A stretch of DNA of 64,000 nt. It comes from a bacterium (GTDB taxonomy: Bacteria > Patescibacteriota > Minisyncoccia > UBA6257 > WO2-44-18). The position numbers were made by a program, and so were the translations under genes. Position 1 is the stretch's first letter. Each line of letters starts with the position of its first letter. Below are positions 4,447 through 34,685 of this stretch, in pieces. The notes under the pieces are model-generated. The model made no database searches and was not told the origin of the DNA. It saw only the letters and a list, made by a program, of their open reading frames with translations. The DNA is taken from NCBI GenBank assembly GCA_030646995.1, contig JAUSKF010000005.1:75323-139322 (forward strand), read 5' to 3'.

Positions 4447-5586
4447 ATGAATGAAAATCTTTTAACTCGCGGGATAGAGGACGTAATCGTGAAGGAGCAT
4501 CTGGAGGAGGCTTTATCCGCCAGCCGGCGGACCGGTAAAAAGTTACGGATTAAGTTCGGCGCTGATCCGACCGCGCCCGACCTTCATTTGGGCCATGCCG
4601 TAGTTCTGCGAAAGCTGAAAGAGTTCCAAGATGCCGGGCATCAGATCGTTTTGATCATCGGGGATTACACCGCCAAGATTGGCGACCCGTCGGGCCGCTC
4701 CAAAACTCGCCCATCGCTAACCGACAAAGAGATTAAGGTAAATGCCAAGACTTATTTCAAGCAAGTTGGAAAGATTTTGAACTTGCGCAAAACGGAAGTC
4801 CAATACAACAGTAAGTGGTTCAAAAAAATGAGGTTTGCCGACGTGCTGGAGTTAATGGCAAAATTTACCACTCAACGAATTTTGGAGAGAGACGATTTCA
4901 CTAAACGCATCAAAGAGGGGGTAGAGGTCTATTCGCACGAACAAGTTTATCCGATGATGCAGGCCTATGATTCAATCATGGTGAAAGCCGATGTAGAAGT
5001 TGGCGGCACCGATCAGCGGTTTAATATGCTCGCAGGCCGCGATCTCCAGCGTCATATGGGTTTGCCCGAGCAGGATGTGATCACCTTTCCGCTTTTGGTT
5101 GGCACCGATGGAGAAAAGAAAATGTCCAAGTCCCTGGGTAACTATATCGGCATTACTGAAGCGCCGGATATGATGTTTGGCAAAGTGATGTCAATTCCCG
5201 ATAAGTTGCTGGAGCAGTATTACAAGCTTTGCACCAGCCAAGAGCGCACCCTACCCGACCCGCGCGAGGCAAAGCTTCGTTTGGCAAAGCTGATAGTGAC
5301 GCAATATCACAGCGAGAAAGAAGCAGAAAAGGCGGAACAGGAATTTATTCGGGTGGTTTCGCATGGCGAGGCGCCGGCGGATCGGCCTAAGCGCAAGGAC
5401 TTGGCGGGAAAATCAATTCTCGATGCGATTAGTGTAGTCAATATAGTTTCCAGCAGGAGCGAAGCTCGTCGCTTGATAGAGCAGGGAGGCGTGGAGATAA
5501 ATGGCAAAAAAGTCTCCGACCCTAATGGGATAGTCCCATCCGGAGCCACCGTAAAAGCAGGCAAGCGCCACTATTTCGATACTTGA
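4447..5586 (+). CDS. tyrS: tyrosyl-tRNA synthetase
   Basis: Class I HLGH motif (PDLHLGHAV), KMSKS motif and a C-terminal S4 domain. The start is moved to the MNENLL ATG, which has an RBS (aaaggaa). Confidence 0.92.
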   Translation: MNENLLTRGIEDVIVKEHLEEALSASRRTGKKLRIKFGADPTAPDLHLGHAVVLRKLKEFQDAGHQIVLIIGDYTAKIGDPSGRSKTRPSLTDKEIKVNAKTYFKQVGKILNLRKTEVQYNSKWFKKMRFADVLELMAKFTTQRILERDDFTKRIKEGVEVYSHEQVYPMMQAYDSIMVKADVEVGGTDQRFNMLAGRDLQRHMGLPEQDVITFPLLVGTDGEKKMSKSLGNYIGITEAPDMMFGKVMSIPDKLLEQYYKLCTSQERTLPDPREAKLRLAKLIVTQYHSEKEAEKAEQEFIRVVSHGEAPADRPKRKDLAGKSILDAISVVNIVSSRSEARRLIEQGGVEINGKKVSDPNGIVPSGATVKAGKRHYFDT

Positions 5587-16447: not shown

Positions 16448-16520
16448 GGGCCAGTAGCTTAGTGGCTAAAGCACCGAGCTTATACCTCGGCGAGCGATGG
16501 TTCGAGTCCATCCTGGCCCA
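16448..16520 (+). tRNA. tRNA-Ile (anticodon UAU)
   Basis: Cloverleaf: acceptor GGGCCAG/CTGGCCC, anticodon stem CCGAG/CTCGG, loop CTTATAC giving anticodon TAT, T-loop TTCGAGT. Confidence 0.78.
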
Positions 16521-16563
16521 CAAACATAAACCACCACTTTCATGTGGTGGTTTATGTTTGTGT
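16521..16563 (+). terminator. long hairpin terminator after tRNA-Ile
   Basis: 17-bp perfect stem CAAACATAAACCACCAC / GTGGTGGTTTATGTTTG with a 6-nt loop. Confidence 0.6.
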
Positions 16564-19254: not shown

Positions 19255-21432
19255 ATGTTGCGCCTAGAAACCGAACTCGCCAAGATTAATGGAATCGGGC
19301 AAAAGTTTATCGATAAGCTGGATAAGCTTAAGATAAAGACCGTCAAGGATCTTTTGTGGCATTTTCCGTTTCGCTATGATGATTTTTCGACCGTAGCTAA
19401 GATTGCTGATCTTAAAGTTAATCAATCTGCAACCGTCCGCGCAGTGGTTAAGAAGGTGTCCACTCGTCGTTCTTGGAAGAAGAAAATGGTAATCGTAGAG
19501 GCTCTAGTGGCCGACGAGACTGGCGGCATCAAAGCCATTTGGTTTAACCAGCCATTTATCGCAAAAGCATTAATGCCCGGCCGGCGGGTTAATTTTGCCG
19601 GTAAAGTTGCGATGTCTAATGATGAGATATTTCTACAAAGTCCGACTTACGAACTTTTCCAAAATACTACCGAGACTATGCATACCGCCGGTCTTATTCC
19701 GGTCTATCCCGAGACTCGGGGACTCACTTCAAAAGGCATCCGATTTTTGACTGGAGCGCTTTTGAAAAATTTGGAATCTATCCCTGATTTTTTGCCGGAA
19801 GAAGTTTTACTGCAGGCGGAAATGCCGAGTGTTGCTTCTGCGTTGAAAAATATCCATTTCCCCAAAAAAATTGAGCAGGCGGAAAAGGCCCGTGAGCGGT
19901 TTGCTTTTGCCGATATCTTTTTGATTCAATTGATGAATTTACGAAACCGGATGCTGCTTGCCAAAGAAAAAGCTCCGCCGCTGAATATAGATAAATCGGC
20001 TATTACTGATTTCATCGCCAGACTTCCTTTCGAGTTGACCGGCGCCCAGCATCGGAGCATAGATGAGATCGTCCATGATCTTGCGAAGCCCAATCCGATG
20101 AACCGTTTACTGCAGGGAGACGTCGGGTCGGGCAAAACCGTAGTCGCCGCAGTGGCCGCTTTGATGTCTGCGCAAAACGGAAAACAAACCGCTTTTATGG
20201 CGCCGACTGAAGTTTTAGCGCGCCAGCATTACAGAACTCTTTGCGCTATTTTTAAAAACTATCCGATTGGAATCGGAATTCTCACCGGCAGTGAGTCGAG
20301 GGCATTTTATGGCGAGGGGATGGAGAGCAAGCTGACTAGGCCGAAATTTCTGGAGGAAATAGCGCAGGACAAGATAAAAATAATTTTGGGAACCCACGCC
20401 CTGATTTCCGAAGTGAAGGGTAAGAAGTCCCTCATCTTTAATGACTTGGCTTTAGCAATCGTGGATGAGCAACACCGCTTCGGAGTGGACCAGCGCGCCT
20501 CTTTGGTGAAAAAAGAATCCGCCAGTCGGCGGACCGCCGGCTGGCGGACCGGCGAAACAACTACCGTCCATTTCCTTTCGATGAGCGCCACGCCGATACC
20601 CCGCACGCTTTCGCTGACATTATTCGGAGATTTGGATTTGTCGATTATTGATGAAATGCCCAAAGGCAGAAAAGAAATTGTTACTAAAGTTATACCGCCA
20701 TTAAACCGGAAGAAGGCTTATGATTTTATTCGCGGAGAGGTTAAAAAAGGCCGGCAGGCTTTTGTGATTTGCCCGAGAATTGAAGAGGCGGAAAAGCCGG
20801 AAGTGGCGAAGGTTGGTGACAAGAAAAAAATAAATCTTTGGGCGGACGTGAAAAATGTGACAGAAGAATATGAGAGATTATCAAAAACTATCTTCCCTGA
20901 CTTGAGAGTAGCGATGTTGCATGGCCGGATGAAGGGGGTAGAAAAGGCAGAAATAATGGCCGACTTCGCGGCCGGCCGCACCCATCTTTTGGTATCCACC
21001 TCCGTTATCGAAGTGGGAGTAGATGTGCCGAATGCTTCCATAATGATGATTGAGGGCGCGGATCGTTTCGGCTTGGCCCAGCTTTACCAATTCCGCGGCC
21101 GTGTCGGCAGGGGAGAGCATCAATCATATTGTTTGCTATTTACTGATTCTGAATCCGCCTCTACTGCGCAAAGGTTAGATGCCTTAATTAAAGCGAAAAA
21201 CGGTTTCGAGCTTGCCGAGCAGGACTTGGCTATTCGTGGCCCAGGAGAATTTATCGGCGATAAACAGACCGGCATTCCTGACTTGGCAATGCGTTCACTA
21301 AACAATATTGCGATAATTAAGCTCGCTCGCGCCTCCGCTGAAGTGTTGATAAAAAAAGACTACACCCTTTCCAATTATCCGCCCTTGAAGGCTGAGCTTG
21401 CCAAGTTTCAAAACAAAATTCACCTAGAATAA
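19255..21432 (+). CDS. recG: ATP-dependent DNA helicase RecG
   Basis: N-terminal wedge/OB region. Helicase motifs I (GDVGSGKT), II (DEQHRFG) and VI (QLYQFRGRVGRG). Carries an in-frame GC palindrome insertion at 20518-20554. Confidence 0.92.
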   Translation: MLRLETELAKINGIGQKFIDKLDKLKIKTVKDLLWHFPFRYDDFSTVAKIADLKVNQSATVRAVVKKVSTRRSWKKKMVIVEALVADETGGIKAIWFNQPFIAKALMPGRRVNFAGKVAMSNDEIFLQSPTYELFQNTTETMHTAGLIPVYPETRGLTSKGIRFLTGALLKNLESIPDFLPEEVLLQAEMPSVASALKNIHFPKKIEQAEKARERFAFADIFLIQLMNLRNRMLLAKEKAPPLNIDKSAITDFIARLPFELTGAQHRSIDEIVHDLAKPNPMNRLLQGDVGSGKTVVAAVAALMSAQNGKQTAFMAPTEVLARQHYRTLCAIFKNYPIGIGILTGSESRAFYGEGMESKLTRPKFLEEIAQDKIKIILGTHALISEVKGKKSLIFNDLALAIVDEQHRFGVDQRASLVKKESASRRTAGWRTGETTTVHFLSMSATPIPRTLSLTLFGDLDLSIIDEMPKGRKEIVTKVIPPLNRKKAYDFIRGEVKKGRQAFVICPRIEEAEKPEVAKVGDKKKINLWADVKNVTEEYERLSKTIFPDLRVAMLHGRMKGVEKAEIMADFAAGRTHLLVSTSVIEVGVDVPNASIMMIEGADRFGLAQLYQFRGRVGRGEHQSYCLLFTDSESASTAQRLDALIKAKNGFELAEQDLAIRGPGEFIGDKQTGIPDLAMRSLNNIAIIKLARASAEVLIKKDYTLSNYPPLKAELAKFQNKIHLE

Positions 21433-21435
21433 GAT

Positions 21436-21840
21436 TTACCAGCCAAAGTAGTTTTGGATGCTGTAGAATCCGGGACCGGCTGTAGCTAGGACCAAAAGCG
21501 AAGCGAGTAAAACCAAATCAAGCTCATATCCGTTGATTAGTTTCATTCCTTGTTTCTTTTTCCAAAGCGCGGCAACCGACATATTGATGGCGAGCAGAAT
21601 TCCGATGATGGGCAAGTAAATTCCTAACAAAACCGCTAATCCGCCAAAAACTTCTACAAAGGCGACTATCGTGCCCCAAAAAGCGCCCGGTTTAAAACCC
21701 ATCATTCCGAAATTGATAGCGTTTTGTTTAAGATCCTTAATCTTCGGCCAGCCGTGAGCCAGAAATATGGCGGCAATTACTATGCGAAGCGCGAGTAAGG
21801 CCCAGTCGGTGAATAATGGAAACAATGAAATAGTGTTCAT
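21436..21840 (-). CDS. DoxX family membrane protein
   Basis: Four TM helices with a DoxX-like N-terminus (LALRIVIAAIFLAHGWPKI). Confidence 0.75.
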   Translation of the reverse strand: MNTISLFPLFTDWALLALRIVIAAIFLAHGWPKIKDLKQNAINFGMMGFKPGAFWGTIVAFVEVFGGLAVLLGIYLPIIGILLAINMSVAALWKKKQGMKLINGYELDLVLLASLLVLATAGPGFYSIQNYFGW

Positions 21841-21919
21841 CCAAATATTGTAGCACTTTATTTACGCGTTATATTATAGTATTATAAGGCGAACAAAGTC
21901 GCCGCATGGCGGCACTTAT

Positions 21920-21957
21920 GGCCTCATCGTCTAATGGCTAGGACAGCCCCCTTTTCC
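21920..21957 (+). pseudogene. tRNA-Glu 5'-half duplicate (pseudo-tRNA fragment)
   Basis: GGCCTCATCGTCTAATGGCTAGGACAGCCCCCTTTTCC matches about 33 of 38 positions of the 5' half of the intact tRNA-Glu at 22236. No T-arm or 3' acceptor follows. Confidence 0.5.
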
Positions 21958-21995
21958 GCCGGAGGCGGATCCTCCTTCGGAGGACACGGCACATA

Positions 21996-22230
21996 TATGT
22001 ATTATCTTTACATTCTGGAAAGTTTAGAATATAAAAGGCATTACATAGGCACGAGCGCCGATGTTAAAAACAGGCTCTCTGAGCATAACAGCGGTGAAGT
22101 GCGGTCAACTAAGGCTTATCGTCCATGGAGGTGCGTATATTCAGAAGAATTCTTGGATAAAACATCGGCGCGCAAGCGAGAGTTGTTCTTGAAAAGAAAC
22201 GCCAAGGCAAGAGAAGATTTGTTCAAGTAA
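21996..22230 (+). CDS. GIY-YIG nuclease family protein (YhbQ/UPF0213-like)
   Basis: YYLYILESLEYKRHYIGTSADVKNRLSEHNSG...PWRCVYSEEF...KRELFLKRN is the GIY-YIG (URI) domain signature. The start is set at the internal ATG because the upstream part of the ORF runs through the tRNA fragment. Confidence 0.78.
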
Positions 22231-22235
22231 AATAT

Positions 22236-22310
22236 GGTCTCGTCGTCTAGTGGCTAGGACATGCCCCTTTCACGGGCAGAACACGGGTTCGATTCCCGTC
22301 GAGACTACCA
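22236..22310 (+). tRNA. tRNA-Glu (anticodon UUC), CCA encoded
   Basis: Cloverleaf: acceptor GGTCTCG/CGAGACT, anticodon loop CTTTCAC, T-loop TTCGATT, 3' ACCA. The tsaD ATG follows immediately. Confidence 0.9.
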
Positions 22311-23432
22311 ATGAAAATTTTAGCGATAGAAACATCTTGTGATGAGACTGCGATGGCCTTGGTGGATTGCAAGGGCAACCCACTATTGAAAAACCGCTCC
22401 GCCGGCTGGCGGATTAAAGTTTTGGAAAATATTGTTTCTTCGCAGATTGCTATTCATCGCCCATTCGGCGGCGTAGTTCCGAATTTGGCAAAGCGCGAGC
22501 ATATAAAAAATCTCCCAAAAATTTACCAGTCGCTAGTCGCTAGTCACAAGTCGCTAAAGTTTGACCTAATCGCAGTTACCGTTGGTCCGGGTCTGGAGCC
22601 GGCTTTGTGGGCGGGAATTGAATTTGCGAAAAGTTTAGCGAAAGAAACCGGCAAGCCGTTGGTTGGCGGAAATCATATGGAGGGACATCTTTTTTCTAAT
22701 TGGCTGCCGCATAGCGTCATTGCGAGTGCGGCGAAGCAATCTAACAAAAATTTAAGTAAGATTGCCACGACCCCTTCGTGGTCTCGCAATGACAAGATTA
22801 AATTCCCGGCAATCGCGCTCGTGGTCAGTGGCGGACACACGATGGTCATCAAAATGGATTCTTTAAAGAAATGGAAAAATCTTGGCGAGACTCGCGATGA
22901 TGCTGCCGGTGAAGCTTTCGATAAAGTTGCGCGCTTGCTTGGCCTTCAGTATCCGGGCGGACCGGAAGTTGAGAGGCTGGCGAAAAATGGAAATCCGAAA
23001 GCGGTAAATTTTCCGAGGCCGATGTTGAATCCGCCAGCTGGCGGAAAAAATTATGAATTTAGCTTTTCCGGATTGAAGACTTCAGTTCTATATTATTTGC
23101 GAGATCATCCATTTGTCGTCAGCCGTCAGTCATTAGTTGCCGATGTCGCTGCAAGCTTCCAGCAAGCCGTTATCGATACACTGGTTGGAAAAACTATGCG
23201 CGCCGCGGAAGAGTTTGGCGCGCAATCAGTTTTGCTTTCCGGCGGGGTGGCGGCGAATAAGAGATTAAGAGAAATTATGAAATTAGAAACTGAGAAATTG
23301 GGGCGGGAATTTTTTGTGCCGGATTTTCAATACAATACCGATAACGCGGTGATGATTGCCGCCGCCGCCTACATTGCCAAATTGCGCGGGAAAAAATATC
23401 CGATGCGCGCCAACTCGAACCTTAGCTTGTAA
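22311..23432 (+). CDS. tsaD: tRNA N6-adenosine threonylcarbamoyltransferase TsaD/Kae1
   Basis: MKILAIETSCDETA N-terminus and the HMEGH metal-binding motif. Carries in-frame repeat insertions. Confidence 0.9.
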   Translation: MKILAIETSCDETAMALVDCKGNPLLKNRSAGWRIKVLENIVSSQIAIHRPFGGVVPNLAKREHIKNLPKIYQSLVASHKSLKFDLIAVTVGPGLEPALWAGIEFAKSLAKETGKPLVGGNHMEGHLFSNWLPHSVIASAAKQSNKNLSKIATTPSWSRNDKIKFPAIALVVSGGHTMVIKMDSLKKWKNLGETRDDAAGEAFDKVARLLGLQYPGGPEVERLAKNGNPKAVNFPRPMLNPPAGGKNYEFSFSGLKTSVLYYLRDHPFVVSRQSLVADVAASFQQAVIDTLVGKTMRAAEEFGAQSVLLSGGVAANKRLREIMKLETEKLGREFFVPDFQYNTDNAVMIAAAAYIAKLRGKKYPMRANSNLSL

Positions 23433-33170: not shown

Positions 33171-34685
33171 ATGCCGACACCAAAAGCAAAAACAGGAAAT
33201 GATCTGATGGATAAGCTTCTTAGCTTGTGCAAAAGGAGAGGTTTTATTTTTCCGGGCTCGGAAATTTACGGCGGCTTAGCTAACTCTTGGGACTACGGCC
33301 CGCTTGGCGCTGAATTAAAAAAGAATATTAAAGACGAATGGTGGAATCGCTTTGTCCGCCAGCGTACCGATGTAGTTGGAATTGATGCCGCTTTGATGAT
33401 GAACCCGAAGGTTTGGGAGGCGAGTGGCCACGTGGCCGGTTTTTCCGATCCGTTGGTGGAGTGCAAAAAATGCCATGAGCGTTTCCGCGCTGACGCTCTC
33501 GAAATTTCGAAATCCGATGTCAAAATGTCGAAATCTCCTGTCGAAATGTCGAAATCTGATGTCAAAATGTCGAAATCTCCTGTCGAAATCTCGAAATCTC
33601 GAAATGTCATTCCCTGCCCGTCTTGTGGTGGTGAGCTGATGGAGGCCAAGCAATTTAACCTTATGTTCAAAACGAACATCGGCCCGACCGAAGAAAAGGG
33701 AAGTGCGGTTTATCTCCGCCCGGAAACGGCGCAGGCGATGTTTGTGGATTTTAAAAATGTATTAGACACCACGCGTAAGCGTCTGCCGTTCGGTATCGCC
33801 CAGATGGGCAAGGCTTTCCGAAATGAAATTACTCCCGGCAATTTTATTTTTCGCACCCGTGAATTTGAGCAGATGGAAATTGAATATTTCGTAAAAGAAT
33901 CCGAATGGGAAAAGCATTTTGAGAATTGGTTAGGCGAAATGAAGGCCTGGCTGGAACACTTGGGAGTTTCCGAAAAAAATCTGCACTATGCCGAGATTCC
34001 CGACGGGGAGCGCGCTCATTATTCCAAGCGCACCGTGGATATTGAATATGAATATCCTTTTGGTCGCAAAGAGCTTTACGGTTTGGCTTACCGCGGGAAC
34101 TTTGATCTTACCCAGCATGAGAAATTCAGCGGACAGGATTTGCGCTACACCGACCCGAATCCGCCGGCTGGCGGACCGAAGGAGAAGTTCTTGCCGCACG
34201 TCATTGAGCCGACCTGGGGCGTGGATCGTTCGGTTTTGGTGGCGATGCTAGAGGCGTACCATGAAGAAAAAGTAGAAAGTTCCGCCAAAGGCGGATCCGC
34301 CTCCGGCGGAAAAAGTGAAAAGTTAAAAGTGAAAAGTGAGGGAGAGGAAGGGGAGGACATTCGGGTAGTGATGCGTTTTCCGAAGTGGCTGGCTCCGGTG
34401 AAAGTAGCGATTTTGCCGCTTTCCAAAAAAGAAGAATTGGCGAAAGTTGCCAAACCCCTCTATGAAGAATTAGCCAAAAAGTTTGTCTGCGAATACGACG
34501 AAACCCAGAGCATCGGCAAGCGTTATCGCCGCCAAGACGAGATCGGCACGCCTTATTGCGTGACGGTGGATTTTGATTCGCTCGAGGACAAAGCCGTTAC
34601 TGTCCGCGACCGCGACACGATGGAGCAGGACAGGATCAAAATTTCCGAGCTTGTGGATTACTTAGGAAAAAGTTTAGAGAAATAA
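33171..34685 (+). CDS. glyQS: glycyl-tRNA synthetase (dimeric, class II)
   Basis: RRGFIFPGSEIYGGLANSWDYGPLGAELKKNIKDEWW is the GlyRS N-terminal signature. Has class II motifs and a C-terminal anticodon-binding domain. Contains a 2x14-aa tandem repeat insertion. Confidence 0.88.
   Translation: MPTPKAKTGNDLMDKLLSLCKRRGFIFPGSEIYGGLANSWDYGPLGAELKKNIKDEWWNRFVRQRTDVVGIDAALMMNPKVWEASGHVAGFSDPLVECKKCHERFRADALEISKSDVKMSKSPVEMSKSDVKMSKSPVEISKSRNVIPCPSCGGELMEAKQFNLMFKTNIGPTEEKGSAVYLRPETAQAMFVDFKNVLDTTRKRLPFGIAQMGKAFRNEITPGNFIFRTREFEQMEIEYFVKESEWEKHFENWLGEMKAWLEHLGVSEKNLHYAEIPDGERAHYSKRTVDIEYEYPFGRKELYGLAYRGNFDLTQHEKFSGQDLRYTDPNPPAGGPKEKFLPHVIEPTWGVDRSVLVAMLEAYHEEKVESSAKGGSASGGKSEKLKVKSEGEEGEDIRVVMRFPKWLAPVKVAILPLSKKEELAKVAKPLYEELAKKFVCEYDETQSIGKRYRRQDEIGTPYCVTVDFDSLEDKAVTVRDRDTMEQDRIKISELVDYLGKSLEK

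Follow-up and report, generated by a model that had tools for sequence, protein, structure and literature searches.

Why should the gene for a small putative nuclease lie between the 5′ half of a transfer RNA (tRNA) gene and an intact copy of the same gene? The question is raised by a locus in a 64,000-nucleotide (nt) stretch of DNA from a member of the Patescibacteriota (Minisyncoccia, UBA6257, WO2-44-18; GenBank assembly GCA_030646995.1, contig JAUSKF010000005.1, positions 75,323 to 139,322 of the forward strand), which we refer to throughout as the window. A first-pass annotation, made from the letters alone, had described here a 5′ fragment of tRNA-Glu, two GC hairpins, a GIY-YIG open reading frame (ORF), a gap of 5 nt, an intact tRNA-Glu(UUC) and tsaD, and all of these parts are indeed present. 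In our judgement the arrangement is probably a small homing-type selfish cassette, lodged in the tRNA-Glu gene and carrying its own copy of that tRNA. The same architecture recurs in many genomes, the site is polymorphic for it at nt 35 of the tRNA, products of its decay occur, and both the ORF and its leader are under purifying selection. The first-pass annotation had spoken of homing or integration at a tRNA gene; the homing footprint is supported by empty sites and by recurrence of the fragment, while integrase-type integration finds no support.

The fragment, hereafter the relic, and the intact tRNA were detected by a repeat finder as a direct repeat of 38 nt with 87% identity (21917–21954 and 22233–22270, spaced by 316 nt). 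The degree of repetition first reported is therefore retained, and what had to be redrawn is the extent of tRNA homology, which covers nt 1–35 and then a further 7 nt on the far side of the hairpins. Both hairpins (21955–21969 and 21970–21984) are perfect, each with a 6-bp stem and a 3-nt loop. They are followed by CACGGCA, which corresponds to CACGGGCA in the tRNA, that is, to nt 36–43 minus one base, and which CATAT separates from the ORF. Rather than beginning at 21996 and encoding 78 amino acids (aa), as first proposed, the ORF starts with the ATG at 21997 and encodes 77 aa plus a stop codon; the 5 nt that then lead to the tRNA read AATAT (22231–22235). The intact tRNA-Glu(UUC), with a score of 60.9 bits in Rfam, is the sole tRNA called by ARAGORN at the locus. 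A second tRNA or tRNA-like gene at 21920–21995 was ruled out, since both ARAGORN and Rfam were silent there, even at E ≤ 10, and the fold z-score was only −1.65; the earlier view of this piece as an incomplete tRNA is thereby upheld.

A recurrent architecture at tRNA genes

Homologues of the ORF were gathered by protein search, by look-up of their contigs and by a metagenome scan, and the L and P numbers used below denote loci and database proteins, respectively, from this set, which covers genomes and metagenomes. A tRNA on the same strand begins at most 150 nt downstream in 70 of the 73 distinct ORFs for which sufficient downstream sequence was available. In most of these the ORF ends either 0–21 nt ahead of the tRNA or inside its D arm, and it is because the stop codon falls in the D arm that many of the predicted proteins end in GPIV. 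The adjoining tRNAs were typed by ARAGORN as Glu(UUC) (42), Glu(CUC) (18), Ser (8) and Cys (1); one 'Leu' and two 'Ser(GCT)' calls belong to the second tRNA of a pair and not to the adjoining one. The first 35 nt of the same downstream tRNA are copied 39–46 nt 5′ of the start codon, and the copy always follows the type of the neighbour: Glu with Glu, Ser with Ser, Cys with Cys. With a score of at least 26 for the upstream copy in 51 of 67 evaluable ORFs, and of 22 or less in control regions, the arrangement exceeds chance. Occurrence of the ORF beside tRNA-Glu without the fragment in many lineages, which would have spoken against a mobile element, is not what we found; the fragment accompanies the ORF elsewhere as well.

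The hairpins are as regular as the relic. In canonical elements they split the tRNA copy between nt 35 and nt 36, the second and third bases of the anticodon, and the double hairpin is 30 nt long, takes the form YCCNCC-NNN-GGNGGR twice, follows straight after nt 35 and occupies the same place in Glu and Ser elements. Beyond it lie 6–8 nt of tRNA sequence from nt 36 onward (sometimes about 23 nt, reaching about nt 58 in L132 and L142), a few spacer nucleotides and the ORF. When the 26 distinct 30-mers that follow nt 35 were scored without any pairing filter, 17 proved to be perfect 6+6-bp hairpins and the remainder formed hairpins in a shifted register; compensatory pairs were observed at stem positions 1, 4 and 5. 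The Cys element has its hairpins at 55|56, within the T loop. The Ser and Cys elements form one clade in a rough neighbour-joining tree, and the Glu(UUC) and Glu(CUC) elements are mixed, as homology-dependent spread between similar tRNAs would have it. The more distant protein relatives P0037 and P0040 have no adjoining tRNA, and the wider protein family comprises 398 clusters (50% clustering, E ≤ 1e-10). Neither a large family of fixed architecture, nor conserved hairpins sited in the anticodon, nor the probable import of the intact tRNA, to which we return below, had been foreseen in the first-pass annotation.

Two relatives are worth recording in their own right. A full cassette at tRNA-Ser(CGA) is present at L183, in a metagenome-assembled genome labelled Candidatus Margulisiibacteriota, and thus lies outside Patescibacteria if the bin label is right; its neighbours are a zeta-toxin-like gene on one side and an rve-family transposase on the other. 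At L178 the P0037 ORF (about 52% identity) is situated between imperfect inverted repeats of ~27–38 nt (1415–1481 and 1741–1802), perhaps a distinct small mobile cassette that uses the same nuclease. As a point of annotation, current gene callers let such ORFs run on through the tRNA fragment or merge tandem copies into one.

Empty sites, relics and the source of the working tRNA

The closest TsaD matches to the window (62–70% identity) come from Paceibacteria- or Harrisonbacteria-like metagenome-assembled genomes. An empty site had been predicted to show a single tRNA-Glu directly upstream of tsaD, and exactly this was found at L002 and likewise in most relatives. L002 and the occupied L096, both from Hainich groundwater, have flanks that are 97–99% identical. 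The order in L002 is doxX, tRNA-Glu and tsaD with nothing between, and L096 matches it up to nt 35 of the tRNA, at which point an insert of 281 bp begins that consists of the hairpins, CACGGCA, the ORF and tRNA nt 1–35. Empty L043 and occupied L035 are syntenic on both sides at ~80% identity, and here, too, the left junction falls at nt 35. The cassette is present or absent, in other words, at a fixed position of a conserved gene. Among 48 tsaD-linked tRNA-Glu loci of relatives an upstream tRNA copy was detected only in L035 and L055, which have the ORF, in L008, which has an ORF remnant, and, weakly, in L053; the fragment is therefore tied to the ORF.

Which of the two tRNA sequences in the window is the older resident? 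The relic is identical at 35 of 35 positions to the 5′ half of tRNA-Glu in L001, which is the nearest relative to give a full TsaD match, and at 34 of 35 to that in L007. The working tRNA differs from the tRNA-Glu of these relatives by compensated paired changes in the acceptor, anticodon and T stems and has its nearest match, at 88%, in the tRNA of the occupied locus L108. The acceptor strand of the relic pairs with the present 3′ strand at 5 of 7 positions, whereas that of the working copy pairs at 7 of 7. Since a dead fragment should not stay identical while an essential gene gains compensated substitutions, we infer that the relic is probably what remains of the resident gene and that the working tRNA is an allele imported with the cassette. 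L035 presents the same picture: its relic is the same as the tRNA in empty L043 and its working tRNA resembles that of L103, the ORFs of the two occupied loci being 89% identical in unrelated flanks. In L096 the working tRNA is of host type, identical to that of the empty L002, so that evidently the extent of imported sequence varies, or else the copies become homogenised. The CACGGCA heptamer appears to travel with the element, as it is common to the window and the three loci given in Table 1 whatever the host tRNA. Compatibility of the acceptor stem was also considered as a general test of import and dropped, its power being too low given that G-U pairs survive most of the differences; pairing is worse only in the window and in a few other relics.

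Elements in various states of decay and re-invasion were also encountered. All that remains in L008 is a relic, the hairpins and the last 22 codons of an internally deleted ORF, and one widespread ORF (P0009) has no start. A partial ORF copy lies upstream of, and abuts, the relic in L132, and an older, more degraded relic is nested outside the current one in L103. Five predicted proteins with two GIY-YIG stretches (P0050, P0053, P0065, P0142 and P0164) are read-through products of tandem arrays. L128 and L132, like the pair L035 and L103, carry near-identical ORFs (99%) in unrelated flanks, and in L090 and L094, which share ORF and tRNA, the left flanks part exactly at the start of the hairpins.

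Several further observations concern individual loci. Tandem arrays of complete relic-hairpin-ORF units occupy 2436–3080 of L107 and 2050–2700 of L159. L094 has no tRNA relic (~1584), the end of an HhH-GPD glycosylase gene running straight into the hairpins; either dispersed hairpins have recombined here or the assembly is chimeric. An extra small gene follows the tRNA directly in occupied L096 (2822–3142) and L035 (7090–7431, on the strand of the GIY-YIG ORF) and is missing from their empty counterparts. The two genes are unrelated, the one in L096 encoding a helical protein and the one in L035 a small membrane protein, and may represent hitch-hiking flanking DNA or an independently variable spot.

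The nuclease, its leader and a possible mode of spread

The ORF product matches the Pfam GIY-YIG family (PF01541) with an E-value of 1.3e-15, residues 1–71 aligning with positions 1–74 of the 78 in the profile. Of the catalytic residues, Y16, G18, R26 and N31 never vary across 35 homologues, and conservation of Y5, H30 and E62 reaches 90% or more. The AlphaFold model (predicted local distance difference test score 96.4) displays the GIY-YIG α/β fold, for which Foldseek returned UPF0213 proteins and the GIY-YIG domains of Slx1, I-TevI and UvrC. The Slx1 nuclease domain superimposes with a template modelling (TM) score of 0.71–0.73 and a root-mean-square deviation of 1.5–2.1 Å; the I-TevI catalytic domain fits more poorly (TM 0.55). 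A profile built from 12 homologues matched the UPF0213 proteins BH0048/EF2693 over the full length (1zg2, E = 5.9e-9; 1ywl, E = 3.4e-8), and the score against the NCBIfam group I intron endonuclease model, 15.9 bits, lies far below its cut-off of 56. The product consists entirely of the catalytic domain, the C-terminal DNA-binding domain of classical homing endonucleases being absent. Judged by sequence and model, it is a bare UPF0213/YhbQ/Slx1-like catalytic domain, a predicted nuclease. The first-pass annotation had set a mobilising endonuclease against a YhbQ-like nuclease; the matches to 1zg2, 1ywl and Slx1 place the protein in the UPF0213/YhbQ-like class, so that the two descriptions are not alternatives.

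Both the ORF and the sequence ahead of it appear to be maintained. In six pairs the ratio of non-synonymous to synonymous substitution rates (dN/dS) of the ORF was 0.05–0.11, which points to purifying selection and a retained function. The 42-nt leader, made up of the hairpins, the tRNA remnant and the spacer, is identical at 41 of 42 positions between the window and L096 despite an ORF dS of 1.28, and it is 93–95% identical in other pairs; we therefore regard it as constrained at the nucleotide level. The leader may control translation, serve as a site of RNA processing, form a DNA structure that the nuclease recognises, or guard the relic against recombination or cutting. The second hairpin pairs CCUCC with GGAGG, which makes it a candidate for translation control. 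The possibility that the hairpins act as a terminator was ruled out, as no T tract follows them. The 98-aa ORF that starts at the ATG at 21934, within the relic, was likewise ruled out as a real protein, since the distances of 39–46 nt between relic and ATG are not multiples of three; the methionine of MYYLY, moreover, is the start in most homologues. A phage origin was also rejected, a scan of viral contigs for relatives of the ORF having returned only two weak partial matches.

We propose that the mobile unit would comprise the double hairpin, the tRNA remnant from nt 36 onward, the 77-aa GIY-YIG gene and the abutting copy of the target tRNA, in its 5′ part or as a whole, and that its point of entry would be the junction of nt 35 and 36 in a resident tRNA gene. 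The putative nuclease may break an empty tRNA gene near the anticodon loop. The left broken end (nt 1–35) could then pair with the relic of an occupied allele and the right end with the intact tRNA or the tsaD sequence that follows, and double-strand-break repair would copy the intervening DNA. In the course of this, nt 1–35 of the recipient would persist as a new dead relic (21920–21954 in the window), and function would be restored by the tRNA of the donor (22236–22310). As the nuclease gene has tRNA sequence on both sides, any tRNA-Glu gene offers homology for repair, and such tRNA-flanked copying is our proposed route between distantly related genomes.

Several points weigh against this reading. 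Either pair of empty and occupied loci could have arisen not by gain but by loss, the 35-nt repeats having recombined precisely. Divergence of the ORF runs roughly parallel to that of TsaD in some pairs (63 vs. 53%, 51 vs. 56% and 45 vs. 48%), and therefore much of the distribution could be vertical; low dN/dS, too, fits a host-beneficial gene. Because the 77-aa product has no DNA-binding domain, sequence-specific recognition of the target is unexplained, and so is the acquisition of a matching fragment when the element shifts from one tRNA type to another (Glu to Ser or Cys). The intact tRNA in the occupied L096, being identical to that of L002, should remain a target, and no immunity is evident. 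Finally, some elements with shortened relics have their hairpins elsewhere in the relic (8|9, 12|13 or 22|23).

Part of this evidence would suit a vertically inherited, domesticated operon, in which a YhbQ-like nuclease gene was captured when tRNA-Glu underwent tandem duplication long ago, the half-tRNA and the hairpins became a cis-regulatory leader for nuclease, tRNA-Glu and tsaD, and the patchy distribution arose through losses by repeat recombination. Strong purifying selection on the ORF, conservation of the leader at the nucleotide level and the rough agreement between ORF and TsaD divergence would all be expected of it, and the comparison of L002 with L096 gives no direction, as exact deletion between the 35-nt repeats recreates an empty site. 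We nevertheless consider such an operon unlikely. It leaves aside the occurrence of the same architecture, with matching fragments, at tRNA-Ser and tRNA-Cys and in unrelated genomic contexts, the range of relics from fully identical to heavily decayed, the internally deleted or startless ORFs and the tandem and nested copies. In the window and in L035, furthermore, the relic corresponds to the resident allele and the working tRNA to a different, compensated one, and a pseudogene fragment should not outdo the functional gene in conservation.

How does a homing-type cassette compare with systems already described? SegB, a protein of roughly 220 aa that includes a DNA-binding part, is the nearest precedent from experiment. 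It is a free-standing GIY-YIG homing endonuclease encoded in the tRNA gene cluster of phages T4 and T6 (PMC2330249; PMC13096335), cuts within tRNA genes at a reported 27-bp recognition site and drives inheritance of its own gene together with the adjacent tRNAs (PMC2330249); tandem amplification through homologous recombination has also been described (PMC2330249; PMC13096335). The cassette resembles SegB in placing a GIY-YIG gene among tRNA genes, and the arrays of L107 and L159 recall SegB amplification. In contrast to the phage system, it encodes a 77-aa catalytic domain and resides in cellular Patescibacteria chromosomes, and its fixed layout of relic, double hairpin, ORF and tRNA has not been described for SegB. 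In sequence, fold and single-domain size (~80–100 aa) the protein is closest to UPF0213/YhbQ (COG2827) and to the Slx1 domain; we found no report in the literature of tRNA linkage or mobility for UPF0213/YhbQ proteins and, to our knowledge, none is known for stand-alone GIY-YIG proteins of this group.

In fungal mitochondria, for example at atp6 of Allomyces, free-standing mobile endonuclease ORFs bring with them a replacement piece of the target gene and leave a pseudogene behind, and GC-rich double-hairpin elements co-occur with such ORFs in the same mitochondrial genomes. There, however, the targets are protein-coding, the duplication is 3′ and the setting is an organelle, whereas here tRNA genes are targeted, the relic is 5′ and the hosts are bacteria.

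The self-splicing group I introns of Patescibacteria, which occur in tRNA-Asn, -Asp and -Thr with HNH enzymes and favour position 35/36 in tRNA-Asn and tRNA-Asp (PMC13011429), share with the cassette the phylum, the tRNA targets and the exact position. The cassette has no ribozyme, and splicing is unneeded as an uninterrupted tRNA copy is supplied. One might suppose that such an intron once occupied tRNA-Glu at 35/36, that its ribozyme decayed to the two hairpins and that the tRNA was rescued by duplication, a history for which enrichment of introns at precisely this site in Patescibacteria speaks (PMC13011429). We think it very unlikely: no group I intron, nor any other Rfam family apart from the called tRNA, was detected in 21800–22400 even at E ≤ 10, the introns reported so far in tRNA-Asn, -Asp and -Thr encode HNH and not GIY-YIG enzymes (PMC13011429), the ORF sits past the tRNA remnant rather than within an intron-like structure, and the 30-nt hairpin pair is also present at another site as a free insertion.

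A partial tRNA duplication flanking an insert, with the tRNA left functional, is also the classic signature of integrase-mediated islands and prophages, and the locus could in principle be an att-site remnant of one in tRNA-Glu. Such an origin is in effect refuted by an insert of this length and content. The cassette is about 0.28 kb long (~281 bp), carries a single 77-aa ORF and has no integrase, be it a tyrosine or a serine recombinase; what is duplicated is the 5′ part (nt 1–35) instead of the 3′ part, and no viral relative of the ORF emerged.

We found no published description of the arrangement, recent surveys of insertions in Patescibacteria tRNA and rRNA genes included. The protein belongs to the GIY-YIG superfamily and to the UPF0213/YhbQ-like group, and the element would act in the manner of a free-standing homing endonuclease cassette such as SegB. 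For the bacterial chromosomal setting, the tRNA targets split inside the anticodon, the 5′ relic, the conserved double hairpin and the minimal nuclease we found no counterpart in that literature.

The window around the cassette and the reach of the element

The features of the locus are collected in Table 1. A consensus promoter scan gave no match in the region before the relic. Between ORF and tRNA there is no room for a promoter, and for this reason we place it 5′ of the relic, where the old tRNA-Glu promoter would lie. With a gap of only 5 nt between ORF and tRNA, and with the tRNA abutting tsaD, the unit would be read from there and then processed; presumably relic, hairpins, ORF, tRNA and tsaD are co-transcribed and the tRNA is released by normal processing.

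Table 1. Coordinates of the cassette, its neighbours and the palindrome copies in the window
Feature	Position	Strand	Basis or remark
doxX	21436–21840	minus	Pfam DoxX; divergent from cassette
Region before relic, presumed native tRNA-Glu promoter region	21841–21919 (79 nt)	+	homologous region precedes tRNA in empty L002
Relic of resident (probable) tRNA-Glu(UUC), nt 1–35, stops past second anticodon base	21920–21954	+	match to downstream tRNA
Double hairpin TCCGCCGGAGGCGGA + TCCTCCTTCGGAGGA	21955–21984	+	putative left end of imported DNA; conserved ORF leader
CACGGCA, remnant of tRNA nt 36–43	21985–21991	+	same 7 nt in L096, L144, L130
GIY-YIG ORF, 77 aa plus stop, catalytic domain only	21997–22230	+	Pfam PF01541
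tRNA-Glu(UUC), encoded CCA	22236–22310	+	ARAGORN, Rfam
tsaD	22311–23432	+	Pfam TsaD, E 2e-80; context, possibly right-hand recombination homology
TCCGCCNNNNGGCGGA copies	4516–4531, 20518–20533, 22398–22413, 23030–23045, 34160–34175		all within coding genes

Some details of the surroundings deserve mention. The tRNA-Glu gene directly abuts tsaD in L002, L007, L009, L016, L052 and L058. In the window the tsaD ATG follows the CCA of the tRNA with zero spacer (22308–22313), as it does in L002, L007, L016, L052 and L058. After 3′ processing of the tRNA the tsaD message would therefore begin at its AUG, which suggests leaderless translation of tsaD, created by tRNA processing and kept in several relatives. 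An additional small GC palindrome, GTCGCCGCATGGCGGCAC, lies just 5′ of the relic (21899–21915) and is missing from the matching spacers of L002 and L096. It was flagged as a minus-strand terminator, which is implausible given that doxX starts rather than ends on that side. The terminator scan matched the minus strand only (21914–21900 and 22413–22398), and both matches are probably spurious. ARAGORN further identified a tRNA-Ile with the anticodon UAU at 16448–16521; this tRNA is uncommon in bacteria, in which AUA is usually read by a lysidine-modified CAU tRNA.

Hairpins and palindromes are not confined to the cassette. The hairpin motif TCCNCCNNNGGNGGA occurs four times in the window (0.06 expected) and the 16-nt palindrome TCCGCCNNNNGGCGGA five times (0.02 expected), its copies lying in the genes for tyrosyl-tRNA synthetase, RecG, TsaD (twice) and a class II aminoacyl-tRNA synthetase. 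The two in tsaD are in-frame insertions of 4–6 residues that are missing from ten homologues, and the copies resemble miniature palindromic elements whose insertion into essential genes keeps the reading frame. A second 30-nt double hairpin (34281–34310) is likewise in-frame, encoding SAKGGSASGG, in the class II aminoacyl-tRNA synthetase gene (33171–34685). A stretch of 26 nt there (34288–34313) matches the cassette hairpins at 96%; we rejected it as a second copy of the cassette, as it is a separate in-frame hairpin pair within a synthetase gene, and its position in that gene means that the pair exists as a free-standing insertion as well.

These elements invite the view that the GC palindromes, single and double hairpins scattered widely through these genomes, are themselves the mobile agents and that the GIY-YIG protein, its gene safely harboured at well-transcribed tRNA genes, spreads them in trans, the tRNA relic being collateral damage from insertion of hairpins into one copy of a duplicated tRNA. 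The excess of both motifs in the window, the in-frame insertions in tsaD, recG and two aminoacyl-tRNA synthetase genes and the extra hairpins at various positions of relics accord with it, as does the fact that Slx1, the closest structural relative, is a structure-specific nuclease that acts on branched DNA. It does not account, however, for the ORF being invariably joined to a complete tRNA and accompanied by a matching relic, or for the junction at nt 35, and the hairpins are found only to the left of the ORF; we consider it quite unlikely.

If the homing-type cassette is carried to its furthest extent, it might constitute a distinct class of bacterial mobile element, a cassette that replaces the tRNA gene into which it inserts. 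In this extended form, which we put forward tentatively and think rather doubtful as a whole, DNA structure or the conserved double-hairpin leader would guide the minimal nuclease to its target, in place of a long sequence read by the protein. It would split a single-copy tRNA gene inside the anticodon and become hard to lose, as it holds the only working tRNA copy and excision by recombination would leave the relic fused to a 3′ half that does not match. The element would also serve as a vehicle for horizontal replacement of tRNA genes, and its nuclease might possibly stand behind the small in-frame palindromes in essential genes.

Should the cassette be mobile, it would have a simple way of spreading between distant genomes, finding homology to its target on both of its sides and repairing with its own tRNA copy the damage it causes. 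Its mobility would explain pseudo-tRNA fragments and odd alleles of tRNA-Glu and tRNA-Ser in Patescibacteria, and would provide the stand-alone GIY-YIG proteins of the UPF0213/YhbQ-like type, which are widespread yet uncharacterised, with a function that can be tested. For biochemistry, moreover, the system would be an easy one, with a nuclease of 77 aa, a defined natural target and a conserved DNA/RNA element of 30 nt. For the tiny genomes of these bacteria, a mobile cassette of this kind would provide a route by which essential, single-copy tRNA genes are replaced horizontally.

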